Shown piece after piece: positions 12,987-47,725 of a DNA stretch of 52,583 nt. The notes under the pieces are model-generated. The model had not been told where the DNA came from, searched no databases, and was given only the letters and a program-made list of their open reading frames with translations. How positions within the stretch are numbered: the stretch's first letter is position 1; each line of letters begins with the position of its first letter. This DNA is from a virus. Its lineage: Duplodnaviria > Caudoviricetes. The stretch spans positions 1 to 52,583 of the IMG/VR virus record IMGVR_UViG_3300047555_000022; one strand, given 5' to 3'. The position numbers were made by a program, and so were the translations under genes.

Positions 12987-13691
12987 TTATTGTTCCAATT
13001 CGTTTGAACAAATGGCGAAAATCTTTTCAAGATGTCCTAACCTTTCTGCTACGTCAAGCATAGATTCGTTTTTTGCTTTGAGAACGGCACGAAGCGAAAC
13101 ACCGTAGCGATAGTATAGCCTATCATAGACTACGTGCCAAACACTTCTTTGGTCGGCATTTTTAGCGTTGCAATATTGATTTATCAATTTCCTTATCTTT
13201 GCCCTTGTAGTTTCTTCAGGTATCTTTTCCGTTGAACGTTCTGCCAGTAGCAACTCTTGAGTAGCTACATTTCGGCTTTCTTCAATAGCTGTCAATCTAC
13301 TATCAAACTCTAATTGCTTCTTTTCAATATCAACTAAGAGTTGAGCATTTGCTAAAAGTTGTTCGGCTGGTGAAAGTGGCTTTTTTAAAACTTTCTCACA
13401 CTCAATAAAATACAACCGTGCTTGTTTGCCTTTGTCAGTACGCTGTACCATTGAAATTTCTTTGGCAGTATCCAGTGTTAAAGCAAAGTCGGTTTTATTA
13501 TTACCGCCCCAAACTCGCTCGTCATTTTTGACGACCAAGATATAGTCTTTATTTTCTTCAAAACCATATTCAAACATTCTTTTGCACCATTTGGCAAATT
13601 CAGTTTTCACTTCTAAGAACTTATGCAACTCTCTTGCACTTACTACTTGCGAGCCTTGCTCATTTGCTGTTACTTTGATTAATTCTTGCAT
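12987..13691 (-). CDS. Antirepressor-family protein: AntA/AntB N-domain + ORF6C-like C-domain
   Basis: VSARELHKFLEV...W...GFEENKDY...LTLDTAKEISM...KGKQARLYFIECEK. Confidence 0.85.
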   Translation of the reverse strand: MQELIKVTANEQGSQVVSARELHKFLEVKTEFAKWCKRMFEYGFEENKDYILVVKNDERVWGGNNKTDFALTLDTAKEISMVQRTDKGKQARLYFIECEKVLKKPLSPAEQLLANAQLLVDIEKKQLEFDSRLTAIEESRNVATQELLLAERSTEKIPEETTRAKIRKLINQYCNAKNADQRSVWHVVYDRLYYRYGVSLRAVLKAKNESMLDVAERLGHLEKIFAICSNELEQ

Positions 13692-13700
13692 TTTGTTTAC

Positions 13701-13820
13701 AAAAAAAAATACCCTTGTAGGTTTTTGTGCTTGAACAGGGTGCTTTAAAACCCAACACTAAACCTACAAAGGCAAAATATCTTAAAAGCGTTTCGGCGTT
13801 CAAACCGTAGTACAAATATA
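13701..13820 (-). ncRNA. Antirepressor leader RNA B (promoter, 5' pairing segments, branched terminator)
   Basis: TATATTTG box at 13813-13820; stem CCTTTGTAGGTTT/AAACCTACAAGGG followed by a T9 run; GTTTGAACG pairs with TGTTCAAGC. Confidence 0.7.
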
Positions 13821-13852
13821 CAAATATATTTTCACTTTCCAACTTAGAAAAT

Positions 13853-14050
13853 TTATTTTTCGACATTGTCGAAATAAATTAATTCCAATATTGTAGCAAG
13901 AACTGCGGCCATAAGTAAAGCTACAAATCCGTTAAACTCCCACTCTTTTCCGAAAAGGAAAATAATTAGTAATTCTACTATCTTCACCAGAAAGATAGAA
14001 ACAAAAGGGATTGAAAACCCAATTATTGCTTTTTTGATTTTTTCTGTCAT
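13853..14050 (-). CDS. Small membrane protein (2 TM)
   Basis: Two hydrophobic stretches. Confidence 0.6.
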   Translation of the reverse strand: MTEKIKKAIIGFSIPFVSIFLVKIVELLIIFLFGKEWEFNGFVALLMAAVLATILELIYFDNVEK

Positions 14051-14115: not shown

Positions 14116-14130
14116 GTTAGTGGCAAGCTA
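14116..14130 (-). repeat. Cassette-end motif TAGCTTGCCACTAAC outside the main array
   Basis: Identical to the ends of cassettes 2 and 4 (26150-26164, 27688-27702); overlaps the stop codon of the Rha gene. Confidence 0.75.
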
Positions 14131-14826
14131 AGAGAATATCCTCGAATAGTTATTGACGATATAATCAAGACCTTTCTTAGTGATTACGATTTTCTTGACT
14201 TTCATCTCTTTTTGACCTCGTGTTATAGTTTCAAAGAAAGTTCTGGCAAATCCTTGCTCTTCTACATTTCGAGTTGATGATGTGCCTTTGCTCGAATCTT
14301 TCATAGCCCAACCAATTTCTTTGAGTTTTGAACTAAGATTATTTCTACCTACGTTGATGATGTCGGAAACCGTGTCCAAGGTGTAAACTGTTGAATTGTC
14401 AATAACTCGGTCAAACGCTTCTACTTTCGGGGTTTGTTCAAGAACTTTTGCTTCGGCAAGTTGTTTGGCTTCTTCTGAAACTACTAACGCTTTGAGTGCT
14501 GAAACAAAATCATGTGGCAAAACTAAAACATTTTGTTGTGCTTTTTTCATTTCTGACCAGTCGTCAATTATTTTCATTCTTAGTGAAATCGAATAGCCAC
14601 TTGCAAGGCATAATGATAACCTTTCGGTGAGAAGAATTTCGGAATCATAGCCACGATTGTCTTTAATTACTTGAAAAGAATCATGGTTCAGAGTTGAATC
14701 ATCTTTTTCTAATTCAAAAAGCATATTTCTAATATCTCTAAGAACGTTTGAATGCTCTTTTCCTGTCTTCTCGGCAATTTGCTTACTCGACATCTTTTGA
14801 GTTGTACTTTTTACAATTTCTTGCAT
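14128..14826 (-). CDS. Antirepressor-family protein: Rha N-domain + KilAC/ANT C-domain
   Basis: MSSKQIAEKTGKEHSNVLRDIRNM (Rha) and PKVEAFDRVID...ITKKGLDYI (KilAC). Confidence 0.85.
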   Translation of the reverse strand: MQEIVKSTTQKMSSKQIAEKTGKEHSNVLRDIRNMLFELEKDDSTLNHDSFQVIKDNRGYDSEILLTERLSLCLASGYSISLRMKIIDDWSEMKKAQQNVLVLPHDFVSALKALVVSEEAKQLAEAKVLEQTPKVEAFDRVIDNSTVYTLDTVSDIINVGRNNLSSKLKEIGWAMKDSSKGTSSTRNVEEQGFARTFFETITRGQKEMKVKKIVITKKGLDYIVNNYSRIFS

Positions 14827-14837
14827 TTCTTAAAACA

Positions 14838-14951
14838 AAAAAGAGGAGTGTTTTATGTAGCTCTGAAAGGGTAGATTTGAAACCCAACTACAAAAAACAA
14901 ACTCCTCAATATCTTAAAATCTTTTCGGTTTCAGTCCGTACTACAAATATA
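14838..14951 (-). ncRNA. Antirepressor leader RNA C
   Basis: TATATTTG box; stem GAGGAGT...ACTCCTC followed by a T run; CTGAAA pairs with TTTCAG and AGATTT with AAATCT. Confidence 0.65.
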
Positions 14952-15016
14952 CAAAACAATTCGTTATTAGCAAGCAATTGGCGACAATTAATTAGCGAAG
15001 CTGTTAAGGCTTGTAA

Positions 15017-15083
15017 CTCCAACTCAACAATTGCGTAAAGTTCACCAAAAAGACCTCACCTTTGTCTTTGTGGGCTGTTGGAA
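15017..15083 (-). repeat. Degenerate attC-like site
   Basis: TTCCAAC...GTTGGAG just after a stop codon; shares GGTGAGGTCTTTT with the site at 15453-15520. Confidence 0.4.
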
Positions 15084-24047: not shown

Positions 24048-24311
24048 ATGAAAAACAAAGTCAATAAATACTCAGATGCACAAGTTGTAAGGCTTTACAA
24101 TAGGCGAATTACAGTAACTAAAAAAGAAGACAAAATTTGTGTCTTATTACAAGCTGTATTGCCAACAGAGGAACTAAACTTTAATGGCTGTGGTATTCGT
24201 GGGAGCTTTAAACAAACGTGTTTTGGTTTAACAAGAGAGGCTGCAATGGCTTTGTGTTATTCCTTGAATGAAGTTTTAAATATGCAGCCTGTGTCCCAAA
24301 GTAACAGCTAA
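24048..24311 (+). CDS. Hypothetical protein ending in the first attC-like site
   Basis: TAA stop lies inside AGCTAAC. Confidence 0.55.
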   Translation: MKNKVNKYSDAQVVRLYNRRITVTKKEDKICVLLQAVLPTEELNFNGCGIRGSFKQTCFGLTREAAMALCYSLNEVLNMQPVSQSNS

Positions 24312-24480
24312 CACTTTGTTATGGGCAGTACGGTCAAATGTTCGGGAACTTCCGTCAGCCTAAACAAATGCTAAAAATGTTTGAACTAACCCGATGCTGA
24401 ATAGAATTACTAAACTTTAAAATTAAAAACGAATGTTGATAGAAGAACTAAACAGCCATTTTGCCAAACCCGTGTTATCG
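24306..24480 (+). repeat. attC-like site 1 (arms poorly matched)
   Basis: AGCTAAC...GTTATCG; contains the family motifs ACTTCCGTCAGCC and AATAGAATTAC. Confidence 0.55.
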
Positions 24481-25170
24481 GCTGGCGTTTTACGAGTTTT
24501 GATTGCTTGTGAGGAAAGTCAAACAGTAACAAAAGAATTTAGAAAATTAGGACACGAAGCGTTTTCGTGTGATATAATTCCGTGTAGCGGTGGACACCCC
24601 GAATGGCATATCCAACACGATGTAACAGATATATTAAAATTGAAGTGGGATATAATAATAGCACACCCACCTTGCACACATTTAGCCGTAAGTGGGTCAA
24701 GACACTTCGTGAAAAAACGTGCTGATGGCAGACAACGTGAAGCAATAGATTTCTTTATGAAATTTTTAGATGTTGATTGCAAATTAGTTGCAGTTGAAAA
24801 TCCAATAGGTATTATAAGTGGAAATTATGTTAAAGAACATTTTACTGATTTAGCTGAAAAATACGGATTACCAATTAAACACCAACAAATCATTCAACCG
24901 TTTGAATATGGCGACCCTGTAAAAAAATCAACTTGCTTATGGTTAAAAGGTTTACCAAAATTAGAACCTACAAACAATGTAGCTGACGAAGTTAAATACT
25001 ATGTAGATAGTAGAGGAATAAAACAAAGTGAATGGAATGTTAGACAGCTTGAAATTGATGGCAAAAAATACGGATATGATACAGCAGAATTTAAAAAACA
25101 TCGTTCAAAAACGTTTGATGGAATTGCAAATGCCATGGCTTTGCAGTGGTCGTCTTACGCTTGCCGATAA
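24433..25170 (+). CDS. DNA cytosine-C5 methyltransferase-like protein (cassette 1)
   Basis: RVLIACEES, AHPPCT (catalytic PC), VENP, RSKTF.GIA.AMA.QW motifs. Confidence 0.85.
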   Translation: MLIEELNSHFAKPVLSAGVLRVLIACEESQTVTKEFRKLGHEAFSCDIIPCSGGHPEWHIQHDVTDILKLKWDIIIAHPPCTHLAVSGSRHFVKKRADGRQREAIDFFMKFLDVDCKLVAVENPIGIISGNYVKEHFTDLAEKYGLPIKHQQIIQPFEYGDPVKKSTCLWLKGLPKLEPTNNVADEVKYYVDSRGIKQSEWNVRQLEIDGKKYGYDTAEFKKHRSKTFDGIANAMALQWSSYACR

Positions 25171-25256
25171 CGAAGGTATTTAAGAAGGACGGCTGTGAAC
25201 AAACGTGGCGTACGCTAACCAACTGTCTGCCGTCTTTCTGAAATACAATGTTAGTG
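25165..25256 (+). repeat. attC-like site 2
   Basis: CGATAAC; arms GTATTTAAGAAGGACGGC/GCCGTCTTTCTGAAATAC; GTTAGTG. Confidence 0.8.
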
Positions 25257-25301
25257 GCTGGCTTTTTTGTCAGATGTGCTTGGAAATACGAAATAACTTT
25301 G

Positions 25302-25421
25302 TATATTTGCATACGGTTTCAACGCCAAAAATGCTTTAAGATATTTTACCTTTGTAGGTTTAGTCGTTGGGTTTTAAGCAACCCTGTTGAAGCGATGAAA
25401 ACCTACAAAGGTATTTTTTTT
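25302..25421 (+). ncRNA. Antirepressor leader RNA A
   Basis: TATATTTG box; 15-bp stem TACCTTTGTAGGTTT/AAACCTACAAAGGTA followed by T8; GTTTCAACG pairs with TGTTGAAGC. Confidence 0.7.
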
Positions 25422-25432
25422 GTAATACCAAA

Positions 25433-26152
25433 ATGGAATTAATCAAAGTAACAACTACCGAAAAAAGTAACACAGTGTCTGCAAGAGAATTGTATGAGTT
25501 TTTAGAAGTGAAAACTCAATTCACAAAATGGTGTGAAAGAATGTTTGAATATGGATTTGAGGAAAACAAGGACTATTTATTGGTTAGTCAAAAAAGACTA
25601 ACCAATAATCCAAAGAATCCTTTCGCAACAGAATCAGACTACGCTCTCACGCTTGACACAGCAAAAGAAATATCAATGCTCCAACGTTCTGAAAAAGGTA
25701 AGCAAGCAAGGCAATATTTTCTCGAATGTGAAAAACAACTTAAAGGAAAAACTCCATCATACCAAATTGAGGACAAAATACAACGTGCAAAGGTTTGGAT
25801 AGAAGAAGAAGAAAATAGACTGCTATTGCAAGAAAAGAACGAGAAACTACAATTTAGGTCAGACTTTGTGGATGTTTGTTTCGATACGAATGGAATGTTT
25901 TCAATGGAAGAAACCGCAAAGATTTTTAAATTGCCTTTTGGAAGAAACGAAATGATGAAGCAACTAAGAGATAAAGGCATATTGACAAAAGAATCAAATA
26001 CTCCTACTCAAAAGTACGTTTCAAATGGATATTTCAAAGTAGTTGAAACTATGGTAGAAAATGGTGCTTTCAAAAAATTAGTTTCAACTACCTACGCAAC
26101 GCAAAAAGGAATTGGATATATTCACAAATTGTTCAAGAACGAACTTGTTTAG
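25433..26152 (+). CDS. Antirepressor-family protein: AntA/AntB + KilAC/ANT (cassette 2)
   Basis: VSARELYEFLEV... N-domain; GRNEMMKQLRDKGIL...PTQKYV..GYF...TQKG C-domain. Confidence 0.85.
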   Translation: MELIKVTTTEKSNTVSARELYEFLEVKTQFTKWCERMFEYGFEENKDYLLVSQKRLTNNPKNPFATESDYALTLDTAKEISMLQRSEKGKQARQYFLECEKQLKGKTPSYQIEDKIQRAKVWIEEEENRLLLQEKNEKLQFRSDFVDVCFDTNGMFSMEETAKIFKLPFGRNEMMKQLRDKGILTKESNTPTQKYVSNGYFKVVETMVENGAFKKLVSTTYATQKGIGYIHKLFKNELV

Positions 26153-26157
26153 CTTGC

Positions 26158-26354
26158 CACTAACGAACAGGGCTTTGCGGTCGTTTGGGAATTTGAAAAA
26201 CGTCCGATTGGAACTGCTGCTGAATAAAATTACTAATGATTAAAATACTTACAAATGCACAATAAAGAACGTCAAGCCGAAACAGAAGTTGATAGCGAAC
26301 AAATGCCCATTGATACAACGTCAAGCCCAAATGCCGCAAAACCCAATGTTGTAC
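26158..26354 (+). repeat. attC-like site 3
   Basis: CACTAAC; arms GGGCTTTGCGG(T)CGTTTGGG/CCCAAATGCCGCAAAACCC; GTTGTAC. Confidence 0.8.
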
Positions 26355-26545
26355 GCTGCTTTTGTATGGTCTGCGGTAATGAATTTCAAGGTGAAGAACC
26401 TAAAATGTGTTGTAGTGGTAGAGATTGTGGATGTATGGGAATGCCTATCGACCCTGTCGTTTGTTCTGATGAATGTTATAATAATTTACCAATGTTTAAA
26501 AACAGAAATGATGAAAAACAAAAAGTCGTATTGGATGAAAAGTAA
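26255..26545 (+). CDS. Cys-rich small protein (cassette 3); starts within site 3
   Basis: CMVC, CCSGRDCGC and CSDEC motifs. Confidence 0.65.
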   Translation: MHNKERQAETEVDSEQMPIDTTSSPNAAKPNVVRCFCMVCGNEFQGEEPKMCCSGRDCGCMGMPIDPVVCSDECYNNLPMFKNRNDEKQKVVLDEK

Positions 26546-26678
26546 AGAAGGCAATGTCGCAAGTGTAACTTTTGAAGGAAGTAGAAAGCCGTCAAAAAAA
26601 ACAGTTGAAGCATTAAGCACAATGATTGATTTGGCTTTTCATAAACTTTCAAAGGAAAGTAAGCTGTCCGCTAAGTAG
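26508..26678 (+). CDS. Small basic hypothetical protein (cassette 3)
   Basis: 3' part of ORF 26289..26678, from MMKNKK. Confidence 0.5.
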   Translation: MMKNKKSYWMKSKEGNVASVTFEGSRKPSKKTVEALSTMIDLAFHKLSKESKLSAK

Positions 26679-26679
26679 C

Positions 26680-26772
26680 GTACAACGAAGGTATTTAAGA
26701 AGGACGGCAGGGAGTGAACTTTGCGAAACGCCAACCAACTGTCTGCCGTCTTTCTGAAATACTATGTTGGTG
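26680..26772 (+). repeat. attC-like site 4 (close paralogue of site 2)
   Basis: GTACAAC; same arms as site 2; GTTGGTG. Confidence 0.8.
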
Positions 26773-26820
26773 GCTGGCTATATTTTTGTTCCATGTTCTT
26801 GGAAATACCAAATAACTTTG

Positions 26821-26937
26821 TATATTTGTGCATGGTTTCGCAGCCAAAAGAAAAATAAGACATTTAGGCGTTGTTCTGTTAGGATTGGGTTATTTTTTCA
26901 CCCTTGCGAAGTCCAAAACAGAACAATGCCTTTTTTT
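26821..26937 (+). ncRNA. Antirepressor leader RNA D
   Basis: TATATTTG box; stem AGGCGTTGTTCTGTT/AACAGAACAATGCCT followed by a T run; TTCGCAG pairs with TTGCGAA and GAAAAA with TTTTTC. Confidence 0.7.
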
Positions 26938-26946
26938 GTAAACAAA

Positions 26947-27690
26947 ATGCAACATATTGAAATTTTCAAGTACAATGAAACCCCAATTGAGTTTGAGGTA
27001 ATCAATGGAGAAGTTTTTGCAAATGCAACAATCATGTGTAAAGCCTTTGAAAAAAGACCCACAAAATGGTTAGAGTTAGAATCTACAAAACGATACATTG
27101 AGGCATTAAAAGTGAAGTCCTCAAATAGTACATCACTAATTGAGGTTAGAAAAGGAAACTCAACAGAATTTTCACAAGGAACTTGGATTCACGAGAAGTT
27201 GATTTTGAAATTAGCAACATGGTTAGATGTTAATTTCGAACTATGGTGCGATGAAAAAGTTACTGAATTATTAAAAAATGGGAAGGTTGAATTGAAACCC
27301 AAAACGCAAATTGAAATTTTGTTAGAAAGTGTTCAAATGTTAGCAAGCATTGAACAAAAGCAAAATGACATGGATTTGAGAATAACGGCAATTGAGCAAA
27401 CAAATCAACTTGCCTTAGCCGAGTTGAATCATATTGAAAGGAGTACGGAGGAAGTTCCCGAAATTGGCATAAGATTGAAAATTAATCAAATAGTAAGAGC
27501 CTATTCGGAAAAAACAGGAATTGCATATCAAGATATTTGGCGGTCAATGTATTCAAAGATGTTATACGCATATCGCTTCAATCCGAATGCCTATAAGAAA
27601 TTGCATGACAAAGAAACCAAGTTAGATATAATCGAAAGGGAAAATCAACTCGATAATCTCTTTGCTATTGTTTCAAAGGAACTTGTTTAG
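26947..27690 (+). CDS. KilA-N domain + ORF6C-like C-domain protein (cassette 4)
   Basis: NATIMCKAFEKRPTKWL...QGTWIHEKL...ATWL..NFELWCD. True start is MQHIEIF at 26947. Confidence 0.85.
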   Translation: MQHIEIFKYNETPIEFEVINGEVFANATIMCKAFEKRPTKWLELESTKRYIEALKVKSSNSTSLIEVRKGNSTEFSQGTWIHEKLILKLATWLDVNFELWCDEKVTELLKNGKVELKPKTQIEILLESVQMLASIEQKQNDMDLRITAIEQTNQLALAELNHIERSTEEVPEIGIRLKINQIVRAYSEKTGIAYQDIWRSMYSKMLYAYRFNPNAYKKLHDKETKLDIIERENQLDNLFAIVSKELV

Positions 27691-27695
27691 CTTGC

Positions 27696-27891
27696 CACTA
27701 ACGAAAAAGGCTTTGTGTCAGGCAATGGAATTGAAATACGTCTGACCGAACCAAAGCTAAATAGAGTTACAAAAGATAAAAATTATTACAAATGAACAAT
27801 AAAGAACTTCTGCCCGAACCGCAGCCAAATAGTGAACAAATGCCGATTGATAGCACTTCTGCCATTGCTTGCACAAAACCCAATGTTGTAC
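27696..27891 (+). repeat. attC-like site 5 (paralogue of site 3)
   Basis: CACTAAC; arms GGCTTTGTG(T)CAGGCAATGG/CCATTGCTTGCACAAAACC; GTTGTAC. Confidence 0.8.
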
Positions 27892-28106
27892 GCCGTTTTT
27901 TCTTCGTGTGTACAGCAGGTAGAGAGTTTAACAATAGTATGTCATTTAATGCTTTTGATATTAAAACAGACGATGGTAATTACCCAACTTATAGAAAATG
28001 TTTAGAAGTTTCCGAAACAAAATATCCAAACCAAAGGTCGGTTACACTTTTAAGTATTTCAGAAGTACCAAAAGAAGATTGGGAACATTTTGTATCTATT
28101 CAATAA
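27792..28106 (+). CDS. Hypothetical protein (cassette 5); starts within site 5
   Basis: N-terminus resembles that of 26255 up to KPNVVR, then is unrelated. Confidence 0.6.
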   Translation: MNNKELLPEPQPNSEQMPIDSTSAIACTKPNVVRRFFFVCTAGREFNNSMSFNAFDIKTDDGNYPTYRKCLEVSETKYPNQRSVTLLSISEVPKEDWEHFVSIQ

Positions 28107-28125
28107 CAATTAAAAAATAAAAATT

Positions 28126-28437
28126 ATGAAATTCAAAAACGATGTCGCAAATTATCACAAAATGAGTGAGCCACACGAAAGCCCCGAAAAAGCAAATGAA
28201 GCTCTCGAAAAGTTTTATGAAAAAGTATCAGAAGCAAGAAAAGAATTTAAGATTGCAGATGTACTTGTCATTACAAAAGGCAGTATTAAATACGCAGATG
28301 GCGAAGAAGGACAATTTATGCAGCATAGTCAATTTGGAAGCCAATTAAACGGTGTATCAATGGCTGCTTATGCTTATGGTCAATTACAAGCAGAAGATAG
28401 AGAACTGTTAAACAAATTAGTTGCAGGTAAAAGGTAG
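28126..28437 (+). CDS. Hypothetical protein (cassette 5)
   Basis: ORF track. Confidence 0.6.
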   Translation: MKFKNDVANYHKMSEPHESPEKANEALEKFYEKVSEARKEFKIADVLVITKGSIKYADGEEGQFMQHSQFGSQLNGVSMAAYAYGQLQAEDRELLNKLVAGKR

Positions 28438-28451
28438 TGTCCACAAATGGC

Positions 28452-28585
28452 GTACAACGTACAAGTATTTATGAAGAAGGGGGAATTTGGAAAACGTCAG
28501 CCCCCGTAACTTACTAATTTTCAATAGAATTACAACAGTTCAATTACTTCCGTCAGCCCCCTTTTTCATAAATACAGTGTTGGTG
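28452..28585 (+). repeat. attC-like site 6
   Basis: GTACAAC; arms GTATTTATGAAGAAGGGGG/CCCCCTTTTTCATAAATAC; GTTGGTG. Confidence 0.8.
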
Positions 28586-28653
28586 GCTGGCGTTTTTGTC
28601 CACGGGAGAAGTTTCTGCCCATTTTAAAATGAAACAACTAAATAAATTATATC

Positions 28654-29427
28654 ATGAAAGTAATTAATCAAGTCAATCAGACCACTGATTATGGTAAATT
28701 TCAAAGTTTGAACGGTAATAGAAATGTTAATGCTCTTCATGTGAGACGCTTACAAGAATCTTTTGCCAAATCTTATTTACTAAGTCCAATTTTAGTAAAT
28801 GATAAGTTTGAGATTATTGATGGACAGCATCGCTTTGAAGCTGCCAAAAAATTAAACCTGCCAATAAACTTTATTTCTATCCCAAACTATGGATTGGAGC
28901 AAGTTCAGTTGCTAAACACAAATATGAAAAATTGGAAATCAGAAGATTATTTACAAGGGTTTTGCGATTTAAAATATCCTGAATATTTAAAGTTTAGAAA
29001 TTTTATGAGACAATTTCCAAGTTTTTTGTTTCAAGGTTGCGATATTTTGTTAAATGATACATCAAACGGTTCTGATAAGCAACAGAATAGCAAGGAACTG
29101 ATAACTAAAACAAATAAGGCAGGCGATTATAATAAAAATTTATTTAAAGAGGGCGAATTGAAAATTCCCAATTATGAAAAAAGTGTTGCCAATGCTAATA
29201 ATTTGATGAGATTAAAAGATTATTATGAAGGGTACAATCGAACAATTTTTATAAGAACAATGGTCGTACTTTTCAAACATGAAAATTTTGATTTTGAGGT
29301 ATTTATTTCAAAGGTGAAGTTAAATCCAACATCATTAAAACCATGTGTTTCGGTAACAGATACAAAATTATTGATTGAGGAAATTTACAATTATCGAAAT
29401 CAAAACAAAGTGTCTTTGAGGTATTAG
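28654..29427 (+). CDS. ParB/Srx-like N-terminal domain protein (cassette 6)
   Basis: GNRNVN...PILVN...IIDGQHRFEA motif. Confidence 0.75.
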   Translation: MKVINQVNQTTDYGKFQSLNGNRNVNALHVRRLQESFAKSYLLSPILVNDKFEIIDGQHRFEAAKKLNLPINFISIPNYGLEQVQLLNTNMKNWKSEDYLQGFCDLKYPEYLKFRNFMRQFPSFLFQGCDILLNDTSNGSDKQQNSKELITKTNKAGDYNKNLFKEGELKIPNYEKSVANANNLMRLKDYYEGYNRTIFIRTMVVLFKHENFDFEVFISKVKLNPTSLKPCVSVTDTKLLIEEIYNYRNQNKVSLRY

Positions 29428-29457
29428 CATTGACTGGCAAGTGCCTAGTACGCTTGC

Positions 29458-29590
29458 CACCAACGTAAAAGTATTGCCGAAGGGCAGGGATTAGAATTAC
29501 AAAACTTCAAAATAAGTACAAATGAACAATAGAATTACAAATGCTGATGAACTTACGTCAGCCCTGCCTTTTGGCAATACAGTGTTACCT
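29458..29590 (+). repeat. attC-like site 7
   Basis: CACCAAC; arms GTATTGCCGAAGGGCAGGG/CCCTGCCTTTTGGCAATAC; GTTACCT. Confidence 0.8.
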
Positions 29591-30106
29591 GCTGCCCTTT
29601 TGCAGTCTGACATTATGAATAAAATAATTGTTGAAATATACAATGGGTGGCCTGGAGAAACTGGTTTACAAAGAGTAATTGAAAAGGTAAACTTTCTTTG
29701 TGAAAGAGTTCCGCAGTATGCCAAAATTATGGGCAAAACAGACCTTGAAACTTTGGAGCTATTTGCAAAATCAAGAAATTGTAATTACACAAACTACTTT
29801 CAGAATGCAAACTTCCCCGATTTATCAGAGGTGTATGTTTTTGATACGATTGAAGATGTAAAGGCAAAGTTTCCAAGTAAAACATATCAATGCCCTTGCT
29901 GTGGTGGAATTTCAACCGATTATCAAGAATGCAATTCAGGTAAAACAGTTGATAAAAAAGGCAAAGAAGTCTGTAATTGGAAAGTTTACGGATTGTTTGG
30001 GGATATGGGAAAAGGAATTAAGGTTATTGTAAAAGATATGTTTACCGAAATCCCAAAACCTGTCGCAATGTTTAAGCCTGTTGAACTCTTAGAGGCTGTC
30101 TCTTAG
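29522..30106 (+). CDS. Hypothetical Zn-finger-like protein (cassette 7); alternative start 29615
   Basis: CPCC...C...CNWKVYGLF motif. Confidence 0.65.
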   Translation: MNNRITNADELTSALPFGNTVLPAALLQSDIMNKIIVEIYNGWPGETGLQRVIEKVNFLCERVPQYAKIMGKTDLETLELFAKSRNCNYTNYFQNANFPDLSEVYVFDTIEDVKAKFPSKTYQCPCCGGISTDYQECNSGKTVDKKGKEVCNWKVYGLFGDMGKGIKVIVKDMFTEIPKPVAMFKPVELLEAVS

Positions 30107-30112
30107 GGTTGC

Positions 30113-30243
30113 AGGTAACGGATTAGGTGTTTAAGAAGGACTGGAAATAGAATTACAAAAGTTCGTTTACTTCCAACTGTCAAGTAATGCTTGAATGTTC
30201 AATTAACCACGTCCGCCAGTCTTTCTTAAACACCCTGTTAGTG
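30113..30243 (+). repeat. attC-like site 8
   Basis: AGGTAAC; arms GGTGTTTAAGAAGGACTGG/CCAGTCTTTCTTAAACACC; GTTAGTG. Confidence 0.8.
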
Positions 30244-30304
30244 GCTGCCGATTTTGGTTGCACAAATATTTTAATCTTTTTTTTGGAAGTATGAAAAACG
30301 TTAT

Positions 30305-30512: not shown

Positions 30513-30800
30513 ATGCAAACAAATCAAACCATCGCTTTATCTTCCATGAGTGAAGATGCGAACCTCCCAACCGCCTTGCAAGAGGCAATCAACGAGTTTT
30601 TCTGTTATAACGGCACACCTGCCGATATTGACGAAAAGCTATTTTCCATGCTCGAATCCGCCACCGCAGGCGTTGAAGAAGTCGGCTTAGATGCCAAAGA
30701 AGTTTTAGGCTATCTTTTCTTCTACAAAACCGACAAAGTCCTTTTCAATCAGCTACATTCTTTCACCGCTAAAACTAACGTAGAGCTATGCAAGAACTAA
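30513..30800 (+). CDS. Small protein upstream of an antirepressor (icd-like position)
   Basis: MQTNQTIAL start after the leader; overlaps the antirepressor start. Confidence 0.55.
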   Translation: MQTNQTIALSSMSEDANLPTALQEAINEFFCYNGTPADIDEKLFSMLESATAGVEEVGLDAKEVLGYLFFYKTDKVLFNQLHSFTAKTNVELCKN

Positions 30801-31459
30801 TTAAAGTTGCGACTAATTCGCAAGGCGAAAGGGTCGTAAGTGCAAGAGAACTTTATGAATTTTTGGGAATGAATAATGCCGTTTTTGCTCGTTGGTCAAA
30901 AAAGAACATTGAAGAAAACCAATTTGCAATAGAAAATGAAGACTGGGCTATGCTCAACATCATGTTGAGCAATGGGAATCAAACCAAAGATTACGCTTTA
31001 AGTTTAGATTTTTCAAAGCGTATTTCAATGATGGCACGAACAGAAAAAGGCGAACAGTTGCGAAATTATTTTATTGAGTGTGAAAAGGCATTGAAGGCAA
31101 CCGTACCAGTAGCGATTTCAATAGAAGATGCTTTGATACAGCAACTACTCGTTACAAAGGCTATTCGCATAGAGCAAGAGCAAATAAGAGCAAAGCAAGT
31201 TGAACAAGATGCACGAATATTGCAAATCGAAGCCAAGACCACCACACGCCCAGAATATTTTACAGTCATGGGTTATGCTATTTTGCAAGGGGCAAGGGTC
31301 GGTTTATCATTAGCGGCTCAAATAGGCAAAAAAGCCAAAACTATATGCAGTACAAAAGGCTATCACATTGACAAAATCCACGACCCACGTTTTGGACAGG
31401 TCGGGTGCTACCCTGCCGATGTACTCAAAGAAGTATTCAATACAACTACTTTTTCGTAG
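30788..31459 (+). CDS. Antirepressor-family protein: AntA/AntB + distinct C-domain (cassette 8)
   Basis: VSARELYEFLG...KGEQLRNYFIECEK; C-domain RPEYFTVMGYA...DPRFGQV..YP. Confidence 0.85.
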   Translation: MQELIKVATNSQGERVVSARELYEFLGMNNAVFARWSKKNIEENQFAIENEDWAMLNIMLSNGNQTKDYALSLDFSKRISMMARTEKGEQLRNYFIECEKALKATVPVAISIEDALIQQLLVTKAIRIEQEQIRAKQVEQDARILQIEAKTTTRPEYFTVMGYAILQGARVGLSLAAQIGKKAKTICSTKGYHIDKIHDPRFGQVGCYPADVLKEVFNTTTFS

Positions 31460-31527
31460 CGTTGTCAAGTCGGGGCAGTCGTTGGCTGTCCCACTTTTCA
31501 AAGTGTCGAAGTGGTTTTTTCGGTTGC

Positions 31528-31600
31528 CACTAACACGCAGATTGACGCAATTGAAAAACATAACTCTTTGATAATTAAAGAGTTATGTTTGCGTATTATG
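31528..31600 (+). repeat. Terminal degenerate attC-like site 9 with a perfect inner hairpin
   Basis: CACTAAC; AAACATAACTCTTT/AAAGAGTTATGTTT; no closing GTT. Confidence 0.5.
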
Positions 31601-45502: not shown

Positions 45503-46105
45503 TTATAAAAGTTGTGTGTTTAAAAATAGTACTGCAATAATTTTTGTGCCGTCCATTACCTCCGTCCCTTCATGTATCATTTGTTTATCTCCAACTTGAT
45601 TTACAAGATTCTTCCAAACATAAACAGTCCCTTTTTTTGCCGAAAACTCTAAATTATTTAGCAATGGAAACTTTGTTTGACCACCTCGCAAGGCATTTTG
45701 TAAGCCTATCATAATCGTAAACATTCGATTACCTGATACATTTTTATTGTCCTCAAACCAATCAAAATGCGGGCGTAACTTCTGACCTTTTTTATATTTT
45801 ATTATATCAATCGTTGTTGCTATTTGCTTTATCGTAGTCGATTTTCCAAATAGACCCTTTGATATGATTTCTAATTTTTGATGAATAAGTGTATCAATTC
45901 CTGAACCTCTCGAAATTGCCGCAATATCAGAATCCCTATAATGTGTATCTACAATTACTGCCCCTGAGCTATCTACAACTGTCCCAACACTCGAAAACTC
46001 TAAAGGAGCAGAAAGGATTCTATCAATTTCTGAGTCAGTAAATAACCCATCAATTGAAAAAAACTTTTGATTTTCAATTACCTTTAGCATCCTCCGACCG
46101 TCCAA
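45503..46105 (-). CDS. 2OG-Fe(II) oxygenase, prolyl-4-hydroxylase-like
   Basis: KY..GQ...PHFD, NRMFT, GGQTKFP, HEGTEV..GTK motifs. Confidence 0.85.
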   Translation of the reverse strand: MDGRRMLKVIENQKFFSIDGLFTDSEIDRILSAPLEFSSVGTVVDSSGAVIVDTHYRDSDIAAISRGSGIDTLIHQKLEIISKGLFGKSTTIKQIATTIDIIKYKKGQKLRPHFDWFEDNKNVSGNRMFTIMIGLQNALRGGQTKFPLLNNLEFSAKKGTVYVWKNLVNQVGDKQMIHEGTEVMDGTKIIAVLFLNTQLL

Positions 46106-46948: not shown

Positions 46949-47725
46949 CTAAGCTATCAATGATTTTAATGTGTAATCAAACATTTTTTTGTTCCCCTCT
47001 AAGTTCGGAGTTTGGGTAAACGAACTGCTTAACAATAATGCGTTTGTTTTTGCTCGCACATTCTTTAAGGTCAATCGGTCGTTTTCTTTCAATACATTTA
47101 ACAAAGCCCATGTAAACGCACCCTGATACGAGTCATTAATATACGCATCTGCACTTGTTTGTTTATCTTGACAGCCTGTAATTAAAACACCATCAAAATC
47201 ATAAGGTTTTACCCTTTCAGTTCCGATAGATATGTTTTCAATTATATCTTTCATGACTTCTGTAGGAATTGGCATAGAACGAGATTTTTGTTCTTTTCCT
47301 GCAACTAAGTTGCGAGTAGAAAGCCCTCCTGAGTGGCACGAGTCGCTTACCCAAAGTTTTTGAACCCCAATATTAAAACCCTTCCACATTTCTGCATAAT
47401 TAGTGTCTGTAATAAAGGTCTTCATGTCGTCCCATGAAAAATTGACTGGGCAAACAAGTTGGTGAAACTTTTTATCAACAGGTATTTCTACGCCATGACC
47501 CGAAAATTGGTGAATAACCAAATCCCATCTTTTCGCCTTTGCTTTTACCTTTTCAAACGCTTTGCGAATATTATCGGCTGTGGCATAAGCATCATACAAC
47601 TGAATTACTTCAACAGGCTTGCCTAATGAATTTATATATTTTAGGAAATTATCGCCATCATTTACGCACCCATTCAACGGAGCGGTAGGGTACTTATTGA
47701 CGCAAGCCTGTATAAGATAAATCAT
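46949..47725 (-). CDS. Caspase-family (peptidase C14, metacaspase-like) protease
   Basis: LNGCVND, FSGHG (His), SDSCHSGG (Cys), GC...QTSADA, GAFTWAL, QTPNL motifs. Confidence 0.9.
   Translation of the reverse strand: MIYLIQACVNKYPTAPLNGCVNDGDNFLKYINSLGKPVEVIQLYDAYATADNIRKAFEKVKAKAKRWDLVIHQFSGHGVEIPVDKKFHQLVCPVNFSWDDMKTFITDTNYAEMWKGFNIGVQKLWVSDSCHSGGLSTRNLVAGKEQKSRSMPIPTEVMKDIIENISIGTERVKPYDFDGVLITGCQDKQTSADAYINDSYQGAFTWALLNVLKENDRLTLKNVRAKTNALLLSSSFTQTPNLEGNKKMFDYTLKSLIA

Follow-up and report, generated by a model that had tools for sequence, protein, structure and literature searches.

T4-type phages carry mobile regulatory cassettes, the PeSLs (promoter-early stem-loops), in which a repeated stem-loop and expression signals precede small accessory genes, and which are proposed to be behind the shuffling of modules in phage hyperplastic regions. 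To our knowledge, PeSLs have no AAC/GTT boxes, no complementarity along a chain of sites and no coding role. Clusters of attC sites without an integrase (CALINs) have been described in both virulent and temperate phages, and their sites were proposed to give phages access to gene cassettes (Qi, Rajabal, Ghaly, Tetu and Gillings 2023, PMC9892861). Like the locus analyzed here, phage CALINs are integrase-less arrays of attC-type hairpins, including one in a Polaribacter (Bacteroidota) phage, and DNA methyltransferases are among their cargo (PMC9892861). Start codons and N-terminal coding within the sites, together with a putatively reversed polarity, are seen in our window (the whole stretch of DNA that was analyzed, 52,583 nucleotides); they are absent from the available text of the CALIN account, which mentions 'divergent directions' for one phage only (PMC9892861). 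We found no published description of a start in the loop of a phage recombination hairpin, and a blastn comparison of the window sites with GenBank phages found no match.

Within integrons, ORF-11 and ORF-18 of attI1 and short ORFs in attC place an initiation region and an ATG inside a recombination site, and ORF-11-type translation aids cassettes without an initiation region of their own and melts the hairpin barrier (PMC8876359). As in the window, the small ORF crosses the crossover point. However, an ORF of this type ends in or just past the core site and acts by termination–reinitiation, at attI or at the attC of the upstream cassette (PMC8876359), whereas the window ORFs lack a Shine-Dalgarno sequence and enter the cargo in frame, site and cargo apparently belonging to the same mobile unit. 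Synthetic attC sites placed within ORFs, as peptide linkers or in lacZ, still recombine (Nivina et al. 2020, PMC7439510); these were engineered sites with canonical extrahelical bases, recombined by IntI1, and the window would hold a natural counterpart with another site geometry. In fused cassettes of class 1 integrons, the downstream gene uses a start in upstream DNA and N-terminal fusions result (PMC8876359, PMC4670013). Those fusions come from attC loss, whereas in the window the hairpin is intact and predicted to be translated.

The 52.6-kb record derives from a freshwater phage, its genome is complete, and the host was probably a member of the Bacteroidota. To judge from the sequence, the segment at 24.3–31.5 kb, in the early/accessory region, is an integron-like array of eight cassettes without integrase (Table 1). 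We consider it likely that these cassettes are headed by their hairpins, that several genes have their start ATG in the hairpin loop, and that leader and cargo normally move jointly.

Table 1. Sites, genes and right end of the cassette array, in window coordinates
Feature	Position	Strand	Description
Site s0	24303..24482	+	Leftmost attC-like site; R' GTTATCGGC at 24474
Cassette A ORF	24433-25170	+	245 aa; loop ATG of s0, GTT at 24474
Site s1	25163..25258	+	Short hairpin, loop without ATG; R'' GCCGATAAC, R' GTTAGTGGC
Cassette B cargo	25433..26152	+	AntA/KilAC antirepressor
Site s2	26156..26356	+	201-nt hairpin; loop ATG 26255; R' GTTGTACGC at 26348
Cassette C first ORF	26255-26545	+	96 aa; 31-32-codon leader joined to zinc-ribbon protein; GTT 26348
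Cassette C second gene	26511-26678		
Site s3	26678..26774	+	Short hairpin
Cassette D cargo	26947..27690	+	KilA-N protein
Site s4	27694..27893	+	200-nt hairpin, s2 paralogue; loop ATG 27792, GTT 27885
Cassette E first ORF	27792-28106	+	104 aa; 31-codon leader and 73-residue cargo, family unassigned
Cassette E second gene	28126-28437		
Site s5	28450..28587	+	Hairpin without read-through ATG; ParB-like gene next
ParB-like gene after s5	28654-29427		Own start
Site s6	29456..29592	+	137-nt hairpin; loop ATG 29522, GTT 29584
Cassette G ORF	29522-30106	+	194 aa; 21-codon leader, 10 more codons, second good ATG 29615
Site s7	30111..30245	+	Hairpin at head of cassette H
Cassette H gene	30788-31459		AntA
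Array right end	31526..31534	+	R'' GCCACTAAC complementary to s7 R'; then A, hairpin absent; attI-like junction

Seven of the eight window sites fold as R''–arm–loop–arm–R', with AAC and GTT triplets at the feet of an imperfect inverted repeat (consensus aTAACG ... TGTTA over 81 sites). The R' box of each site is the reverse complement of the R'' box of the next at seven of the eight junctions, the remaining one having a single mismatch (0,0,0,1,0,0,0,0 along the window), and the R'' and R' boxes of one and the same site show 2–4 differences over 6 distal positions. This chain rule extends to related contigs (103 sites on 28 locus-strands), which gave 206 raw site hits as against 9 in the control of 60 shuffled loci. 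Such chimeric sites, whose distal R' half pairs with the following R'', are the signature of circular or circularisable cassettes. At s0, the loop-in-hairpin arrangement claimed in the earlier note held for the 3' half, intact from 24388, and for its ATG. The 5' half forms no hairpin in the window, its arm being degenerate or replaced; homology to the intact hairpins of relatives begins only at 24388, and a contig of run X3 has the intact 5' arm up to that point. Cassettes B and D have promoter-like motifs and leader hairpins of their own, at 25298-25422 and 26816-26938, respectively.

The sites differ from integron attC in their local geometry. attC sites normally have 2–3 extrahelical bases opposite the cleaved AAC and a 5–6-nt unpaired central spacer in both arms (PMC5027507). 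The window sites lack this geometry: constrained arm folds revealed a one-sided bulge of ~4 nt immediately behind YAACG, along with G.T or 1x1 mismatches, and the 3' arm had no extrahelical base. Sites s1 and s3 (96–97 nt) and s5–s7 (135–138 nt) lie inside the attC length range of 57–141 bp, s0, s2 and s4 (180–201 nt) are longer, and the longest relative site (269 nt) holds an entire 58-codon ORF in its loop. The arms of the coding (+) strand are the more stable ones in 69 of the 81 sites, in agreement with the polarity that we propose. The unpaired features, however, are unlike those of a canonical bottom strand, since the arm with the putative cleaved AAC also has the bulge and no base is extruded opposite it. 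By analogy with the canonical sites, the reactive strand would then be the minus strand, which counts against the explanation that we prefer.

No match to TIGR02249 or PF00589 was found across the whole 52.6-kb record, and the array may therefore be frozen. In a relative (G001), a 285-aa Xer/IntI-like recombinase is encoded past the right end of the array, which corresponds to where intI is classically found, provided that the array is read on the opposite strand. This protein scores below every NCBIfam cut-off and, at the place of the IntI-specific insertion, has 22 residues versus 73 in VchIntIA (2a3v).

The flanks of related sites indicate which gene a hairpin travels with. Among 61 pairs of sites with similar cores, 12 share the downstream flank alone (about 6–7 independently, as duplicates such as L002/L003 = L199 are included), none shares the upstream flank alone, and 25 have neither flank in common. 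Identity over window positions 24388-25172 is 91% to G001 and 93% to L001; beyond the AAC of the following site, whose core differs, the similarity is lost. L031 and L043 diverge directly after ACGCACAAC, and cassette G and its core, without their flanks, are common to L283. The modules found in other phages (the methyltransferase, cassette G) comprise hairpin and gene, with their right border precisely at the next AAC. Likewise, the s1 and s3 cores are 86% identical, and their similarity begins exactly at AAC, behind unrelated genes. Since the core is tied to the downstream gene and AAC|G is where homology is lost, leader and cargo would normally form one mobile unit, and the cassette polarity appears to be the reverse of that in classical integrons.

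The main competing explanation, which agrees with the earlier note, retains the classical polarity: the hairpin would belong to the upstream cassette, recombination at G|TT would put new cargo behind a resident leader, and rearrangement would act as a translational switch with routine fusions. The common leader of s2 and s4, followed by unrelated cargo, can be read in this way, as can the finding of a single cargo behind two leaders and of many cargos behind a single leader family. Some homology breaks do map at GTT, with differing R' and downstream DNA (L199-11700/L040-3944, L219-13267/L258-15646, L211-5384/L236-6028), an X7 contig departs from the window at 27888, directly after GTTG, and the asymmetric bulge would suit a reactive minus strand. 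These GTT breaks and the 25 pairs with neither flank in common indicate that crossover is not exclusively at AAC|G. However, the absence of upstream-only sharing speaks against the classical polarity, as do cassettes A and G and L031/L043, which retain the core on their upstream side but, from AAC onward, not the one on their downstream side, and the point at which s1/s3 similarity starts. Moreover, all three frames relative to GTT are used, so that random re-pairing would mostly yield out-of-frame products. We therefore regard this explanation as unlikely, and the idea that ordinary shuffling switches translation is not supported.

The reading in which leader and cargo travel together still leaves room for exchange between them. 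The ATG-less methyltransferase cargo (GTTAYCGGCTGGCGTT..) stands behind two unrelated leaders, in frame with both; four homologous N6_N4 methylases have four different leaders in three frames, and one leader family heads unrelated cargos. In contigs of runs X3 and X7, from two other studies, a different, shorter leader is joined to cargo E, in frame by eye. Thus, homologous cargos with differing site-derived N-termini, for which the earlier note had suggested a search, do occur in other phages. Conservation of the frame relative to GTT across arrays, which it had also raised, was not found; each surviving leader/cargo pair is nonetheless in frame. In L283, the cassette G leader retains its frame and length, and the cargo is 72% identical.

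The start codon and N-terminal codons of the following gene lie physically within recombination-type sites. As the earlier note had described, the four ORFs at 24433, 26255, 27792 and 29522 begin at loop ATGs behind A-rich sequence (..AAAAACGAATG, ..CTTACAAATG, ..ATTACAAATG and ..AGTACAAATG, respectively) and cross the GTT, giving predicted site-derived N-terminal leaders of 14–34 residues. These ORFs run 62–231 codons in frame past GTT, which does not fit ORF-11-type coupling. An ORF-11-like layout fits idle leaders only, as at the s7 ATG 30187, whose frame extends 18 codons past GTT. In a comparison, the leaders of 26255 and 27792 are alike (34 codons each, 16 of them identical, common ..SEQMPID..KPNVVR), and the two ORFs diverge ~17 nt past GTT.

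It could be argued that these upstream ATGs are unused, their frames being open by chance and translation starting at internal ATG, GTG or TTG codons past GTT. With a start-context matrix trained on 36 genes of the phage, the loop ATGs fell at the 94th, 85.5th, 96.9th and 88th percentiles of all ATGs, versus 0.9 for the alternative start at 26366, 28.9 for GTG 24472, 9.7 for TTG 24499 and 36.4 for 27939. Furthermore, pairing in the s2, s4 and s6 RNA folds is lowest in the start regions (0.20–0.28 vs 0.49–0.58 elsewhere in the site). The cassette A ORF consists of a 14-codon leader (MLIEELNSHFAKPV) and six cassette codons, followed by a phrog_757-type DNA methyltransferase (profile E=1.5e-60, residues 21-242). 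This family usually begins M-[KR]-[IV]-L-[IV]-ACEES, and 34 of 40 inspected homologues have an ATG 1–2 codons ahead of the motif; the window and L001–L003 have TTA at that position and the 20-residue extension. From GTT to RVLIACEES there is no ATG, as had been noted, and the next in-frame one lies 94 codons past GTT; the leftover GTG and TTG are in poor contexts. In the 26255 protein, phrog_19268 aligns from residue 37 (profile position 4), which places M38, the only downstream ATG, inside the CxxC knuckle C37-M38-V39-C40.

Related phages provide a wider sample. The window and related contigs together yielded 90 non-redundant chained sites. A leader-type ORF reaches GTT in 51, and 29 of these ORFs extend at least 60 codons beyond it (binomial p=4.7e-4), whereas random frames would give at most one third; read-through above chance is thus borne out. 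In relatives, over 20 fused cargos lack any in-frame ATG for 25 codons after GTT. Pfam domains follow the junction directly, with no usable ATG, for MT-A70 (L213:17430) and C5 methylase (L258:14715), as do N6_N4 domains in L229:893 and L201:18120. L004 keeps the extension without the hairpin (four synonymous and two non-synonymous changes over 13 leader codons relative to the window), and in both window/L004 and window/L283 the leader frame is kept with synonymous-biased change. On the other hand, 22 of the 51 leader-type ORFs stop fewer than 60 codons past GTT; seven of them run 48–59 codons and may be small cargos, and the rest look like idle upstream ORFs. L202 8831 and L275 7083 possibly have a native ATG a few codons past GTT. 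At the protein level, the leader peptide of s2 and s4 shows no conservation: differences fall 11/8/10 by codon position, with 4 synonymous and 14 non-synonymous codons, which leaves the open frame and the equal length as the sole arguments for translation of these two leaders. The strongest case for an internal start is cassette G, whose own ATG 29615 is equally good (92nd percentile). We find it quite improbable that the loop ATGs are generally unused. They appear to be the only plausible starts for the methyltransferase, the zinc-ribbon protein and the cassette E protein, and ATG 29522 is probably a working start too. The supposed dependence of the cargo on the site therefore applies to at least three of the four, the fourth having an alternative.

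Finally, we give very little credence to the hairpins being RNA elements (terminators, processing sites or translational operators), with mosaicism from homologous or illegitimate recombination at conserved intergenic sequence: the coding strand folds better through G.T pairs (G.U in RNA), TG(G/C)C and a T-run follow every window R' box, and annealing of short homologies could be carried out by the Erf, NinB-like and SSB proteins of the phage, but the cassette-specific R'(n)/R''(n+1) complementarity has no RNA rationale, homology breaks map to AAC and GTT triplets, a recombinase flanks the G001 array, IntI1 recombined attC sites of virulent phages (Qi et al. 2023, PMC9892861), and a simple terminator scan gave no excess (8 hits vs 5.4 expected).

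Site anatomy, chain complementarity, breakpoints, missing internal starts and the in-frame excess can be read directly in the DNA; the scheme that we propose would add translation itself, a recombinase and a reason for the start in the loop. Each cassette would be headed, not trailed, by an attC-like hairpin, consisting of a ..YAAC-G foot, arms, loop, arms and a GTTR.. foot. Crossover would take place mainly at AAC|G, in the 5' foot as read on the coding strand, and the mobile unit would therefore comprise the hairpin, the gene or genes and the distal half of the next R'' box. The hairpin would lie in the 5' end of the mRNA of its own gene, which may be why many loops carry an A-rich unpaired initiation region and an ATG. 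Before reaching the cargo, ribosomes would translate the 3' arm, GTT box and T-run, and the product would thus bear a weakly constrained leader of 14–34 residues. Occasional exchange at or just after GTT would re-pair leaders and cargos, with only in-frame pairs persisting. Of the translational switch proposed in the earlier note, routine shuffling is not upheld, since the leader usually stays with its cargo; re-pairing at GTT would be confined to rare events over evolution.

The eight attC-like hairpin sites (s0–s7, heading cassettes A–H in that order) lie at 24.3–31.5 kb and have the architecture ..YAAC-G / arm / loop / arm / GTTR.., where the R'' box (AAC) is the 5' foot and the R' box (GTT) the 3' foot. 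The exception is s0, whose 5' arm in the window is not complementary to its 3' arm; an intact s0-type 5' arm is present in relatives and in a contig from another sample, with similarity beginning at 24388. At seven of eight junctions the R' 9-mer is the exact reverse complement of the next site's R'', and the eighth has one mismatch, while R' and R'' inside one site show two to four differences over six distal positions. This matching is the signature of cassettes able to circularise. The array ends at 31526-31534, since the final R'' there precedes an A and heads no hairpin.

A strict finder (YAACG, at least 10 of 11 arm pairs, GTTR), combined with this chain rule, replaced an earlier looser one, which was discarded because it gave 42 window matches versus 19–31 in shuffles. 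The strict finder returned 206 matches in 165 related viral contig loci (both strands) versus 9 in 60 shuffled loci (one strand), and 103 of the 206, spread over 28 locus-strands, obey the chain rule. It missed s0 and s4, which were added by hand, and its match at 24728-24801 is a false site within the methyltransferase gene, excluded from later counts. Neither s1 with its promoter region nor s6 matched any GenBank phage by blastn. Of at least 118 viral-contig loci picked up by a 14-mer search for the s2/s4 arm, L105 and L172 are relevant and the remainder chance matches.

After every R' box in the window come TG(G/C)C (CG at s4) and four to six consecutive T, so that the whole site resembles a long hairpin with a U-tract; a terminator scan of the window gave 8 terminator-like matches versus 5.4 expected, without excess. 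The T-run stretch is translated in the predicted fused ORFs, e.g. as ..GVL.., ..CFC.. or ..RFFF... R''-type boxes (GCTTGCCACTAAC, GCCACTAAC, GTAGGTAAC) also occur at gene ends, where A replaces the subsequent G and there is no hairpin. They have the appearance of junctions of the array-end (attI-like) or secondary-site type; of these boxes, that at 14116 lies outside the array, on the opposite strand, after a Rha/KilAC gene. In some relatives the hairpins reach 214–269 nt (L036, 4438-4706 and 2599-2815), and the large loops hold either a complete ORF of 58 codons whose end lies in the R' box or roughly the first 50 codons for a longer protein. The hairpin 'loop' can therefore be up to gene-sized in relatives.

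Positions of array features and related elements (window coordinates unless another contig is named)
Feature	Plus strand	Minus strand	Other contig
Loop ATG / GTT pairs	24433/24474; 26255/26348; 27792/27885; 29522/29584
TG(G/C)C and T-run after R'	24483-24496; 25259-25272; 26357-26370; 26775-26788; 27894-27907; 28588-28601; 29593-29606; 30246-30259
Motif ATAGAATTAC	24401; 26224; 27761; 28524; 29491; 29529; 30147	13969-13978
5' module of Ant/KilA-type genes	25298-25422; 26816-26938	about 13700-13850
AntA/KilAC/Rha/KilA-N paralogues	25433; 26947; 30788; 32785; 36106	12987-13691; 14128-14826
Hairpin-less R''-type boxes at gene ends	31526-31534	14116-14128	L283, about 1690-1710

Classical polarity was our initial working assumption, and it was rejected on the breakpoints shared by the window and the related loci G001 and L001, and on the flanks of homologous cores (the hairpin between the boxes). 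Window 24388-25172 matches G001 (91%) and L001 (93%), and the match ends at the next site's AAC, where the core is unrelated; the s0-type hairpin is common to L001 and G001 from its AAC onward, and the upstream genes differ. Among 61 core pairs at 75% identity or more, 24 share both flanks (mostly duplicate contigs), 12 the downstream flank only (about six or seven independent), none the upstream flank only, and 25 neither. This asymmetry, together with the breaks at AAC, suggests that as a rule the hairpin moves together with its downstream gene, the main break being at AAC|G. This predicted hairpin-first layout is the reverse of that of classical cassettes. The population-level evidence is drawn from contigs of four sequencing runs, and some tallies hold duplicate contigs. 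Individual comparisons add detail: the methyltransferases of L031 and L043 are 92% identical as far as ACGCACAAC and diverge beyond it, cassette G and its core are common to the window and L283 and neither flank is, and a contig of another sequencing run (X4) enters s2 carrying a different R''. In 69 of 81 sites the arms fold more stably on the coding strand, because A.C mismatches of the opposite strand become G.T pairs there. This stability is consistent with reversed polarity, as is the position of a recombinase gene in G001 (L199), at 14214-15071, 0.7 kb past the last site and beyond the right end of an array that carries the same methyltransferase cassette as the window. One feature fits poorly: a one-sided bulge of about 4 nt adjoins the AAC presumed to be cleaved, unlike in canonical bottom strands.

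The earlier note had proposed that loop ATGs supply gene starts and N-terminal leaders to the cassettes. Our analyses confirmed that four ORFs start at ATGs in the loops of long inverted repeats and cross the 3'-foot GTT, with predicted N-terminal peptides such as MLIEELNSHFAKPV.. and M(H/N)NKE...; we infer all proposed gene starts, and the read-through, from sequence. For cassette A, a phrog_757-type methyltransferase, there is indeed no ATG between GTT and RVLIACEES. Of 80 homologues fetched, 40 were inspected: 34 carry an ATG one or two codons ahead of [KR][IV]L[IV]ACEES and two carry it four codons ahead. The window gene has TTA at this position, and in four close relatives no ATG is nearer than 17 codons to the motif. 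By the start-context matrix, ATG 24433 ranks at the 94th percentile versus the 29th for the in-frame GTG and the 10th for TTG. In the related locus L004, the extension MNIEELNTHFAKP.. is retained without any hairpin, and its 13 codons differ from the window leader by four synonymous and two non-synonymous changes.

In cassette C, a zinc-ribbon protein, the phrog_19268 alignment begins at residue 37, and the CxxC knuckle contains the sole downstream ATG (M38), whose start context ranks at the 0.9th percentile. In cassette E, ATG 27792 ranks at the 97th percentile versus the 36th for the internal ATG, and the same cargo is joined to a different, shorter leader in contigs from two other studies, in frame as judged by eye from the letters rather than computed. 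In cassette G, the gene's own ATG at 29615 equals the loop ATG in quality (92nd versus 88th percentile). A search for relatives of its cargo yielded one locus only; L283 has a cargo 72% identical to it and preserves both the length and the frame of the leader and of the ten codons before ATG 29615, with differences of 5/1/7 at the three codon positions. Both starts may be in use. As the earlier note had observed, the leaders at 26255 and 27792 are alike and head unrelated cargos; each is 34 codons long, and 16 codons are identical. Their differences fall 11/8/10 by codon position, with no coding-type substitution bias, and the s2/s4 leader peptide itself is barely constrained. A conserved targeting peptide was rejected on the same comparison, which shows no protein-level constraint.

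Among 90 non-redundant chained sites from the window and related contigs, 39 lack a leader-type ORF reaching GTT, 29 have one running at least 60 codons past it, and 22 have one stopping earlier, seven of the latter spanning 48–59 codons. In-frame read-through thus exceeds chance (29 of 51 versus one third, p=4.7e-4). The fused cargos include MT-A70, C5 and N6_N4 methylases, in which the Pfam domain starts a few residues past the junction and no usable internal ATG is found.

Homologous cargos with different site-derived N-termini, a prediction of the fusion idea, were found. The ATG-less phrog_757-type cargo (GTTAYCGGCTGGCGTT..) lies behind an s0-type leader in the window, G001 and L001, and behind the unrelated leader MSTQFDLFT.. 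in L219, both pairings being in frame. In L201 the MSTQ.DLFT leader is found, in another frame, ahead of an N6_N4 methylase; four homologous N6_N4 methylase cargos have four different leaders in three frames, and the s0-type leader family heads unrelated cargos or short dead-end ORFs. Breaks at or just past GTT are also present, as in contigs of the sequencing runs X7 (at 27888) and X4 (at 27899). The re-pairing of leaders and cargos argues for fusion as an evolutionary process, and not for a routine translational switch. A broader reading, which we consider rather improbable, is that the hairpins naturally serve to assemble modules in frame. In this reading, a tyrosine recombinase without the IntI insertion would act on either foot of the near-symmetric hairpin, and a module of start and leader could be re-attached at GTT to ATG-less cargos, creating and activating new cassettes and in effect capturing promoterless, start-less gene fragments, with the leader peptide or the loop motif ATAGAATTAC possibly a shared regulatory handle across unrelated accessory genes. 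The G001 recombinase, a 285-aa Xer/IntI-like tyrosine recombinase, has 22 residues where VchIntIA has 73, with about 50 fewer between two aligned blocks; its best match, NF040815 (XerA/integron integrase), scores 188.6 bits versus a cut-off of 220, and it falls below all NCBIfam cut-offs. The TIGR02249 (integron integrase) and PF00589 (tyrosine recombinase) profiles gave no match across the entire 52,583-bp record.

The window, from a freshwater phage, spans an entire IMG/VR virus record, which has direct terminal repeats. Minus-strand tail and head genes (tape measure, TerL, peptidase and others) occupy both ends, and a plus-strand early region at 17.5–37 kb encodes DnaB, a DUF3127-type SSB, Erf, a NinB-like protein, RNase H and many Ant/KilA/Rha paralogues. 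This one 52-kb phage carries seven AntA/KilAC/Rha/KilA-N paralogues, of which three lie within the cassette array. Amid its late/structural genes are those for a 2OG-Fe(II) oxygenase and a caspase-like Peptidase_C14 protein (45503-46105 and 46949-47725, minus strand). Gene starts are preceded by A-rich sequence and the Shine-Dalgarno motif is absent; the terminase is less than 27% identical to that of any isolate, Flavobacterium phages being among the best full-length matches. From these features we infer that a Bacteroidota host is likely.

Each hairpin would lie at the start of the mRNA of the cassette that it heads. Without Shine-Dalgarno-guided initiation, a start adjoining the stem would be occluded; we propose that the A-rich initiation region and the ATG would stay unpaired in the loop, and that the elongating ribosome would melt the 3' arm afterwards. 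When s2, s4 and s6 are folded as RNA, no part of the site is less paired than the start region (0.20–0.28 versus 0.49–0.58 elsewhere in the site); the degenerate s0 gives no such contrast. The motif ATAGAATTAC, with at most one mismatch, occurs 13 times in the window versus 6.4 expected, seven times in the loops of s0, s2 and s4–s7, all on the plus strand. It lies upstream of the ATG in some sites and is read as N-R-I-T in others, and the interval from motif to ATG, 29491-24, is all that an X7 contig has in common with s6. Possible roles for the motif are those of a regulator site, a phage promoter or an initiation enhancer. A window promoter scan for the sigma-70 consensus, which does not cover Bacteroidota promoters, gave 25 matches versus 25.3 expected, without excess. 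Three Ant/KilA-type genes have a common 5' module, TTTGTATATTTG followed by a leader that is about 100 nt long and closes with a strong hairpin and T-run just before the ATG. TTTGTATATTTG resembles the Bacteroidota -7 box TAnnTTTG, and the module may control antirepressor paralogues as an attenuator or a small RNA.

In the textbook view, an integron cassette is a gene that lacks a promoter and has a non-coding attC site behind it. In these phage arrays, the site appears to precede the gene and to be itself translated. CALINs in phages, including methyltransferase cassettes, have already been published (Qi et al. 2023). The nearest known analogues are ORF-11 and ORF-18 in attI1 and short ORFs in attC, which act by termination-reinitiation (PMC8876359); engineered attC sites within coding sequence are another (PMC7439510). 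Our literature search, outside of which lay the supplements of Qi et al. 2023 that possibly list site/ORF overlaps, found no paper on natural attC-type sites holding the next gene's start and N-terminus, or on reversed cassettes in phages.

The hairpin sites also offer defined substrates on which the short Xer-like recombinases that adjoin such arrays could be tested. If confirmed, the present reading would mean that gene callers and cassette-boundary tools mis-annotate many phage accessory gene starts, notably those of anti-restriction methyltransferases. It would also mean that a structure-specific recombination site coexists in nature with a start codon and coding sequence, so far shown only for engineered attC, and would explain how cassettes can be expressed in non-Shine-Dalgarno hosts despite a stable hairpin at the mRNA 5' end.
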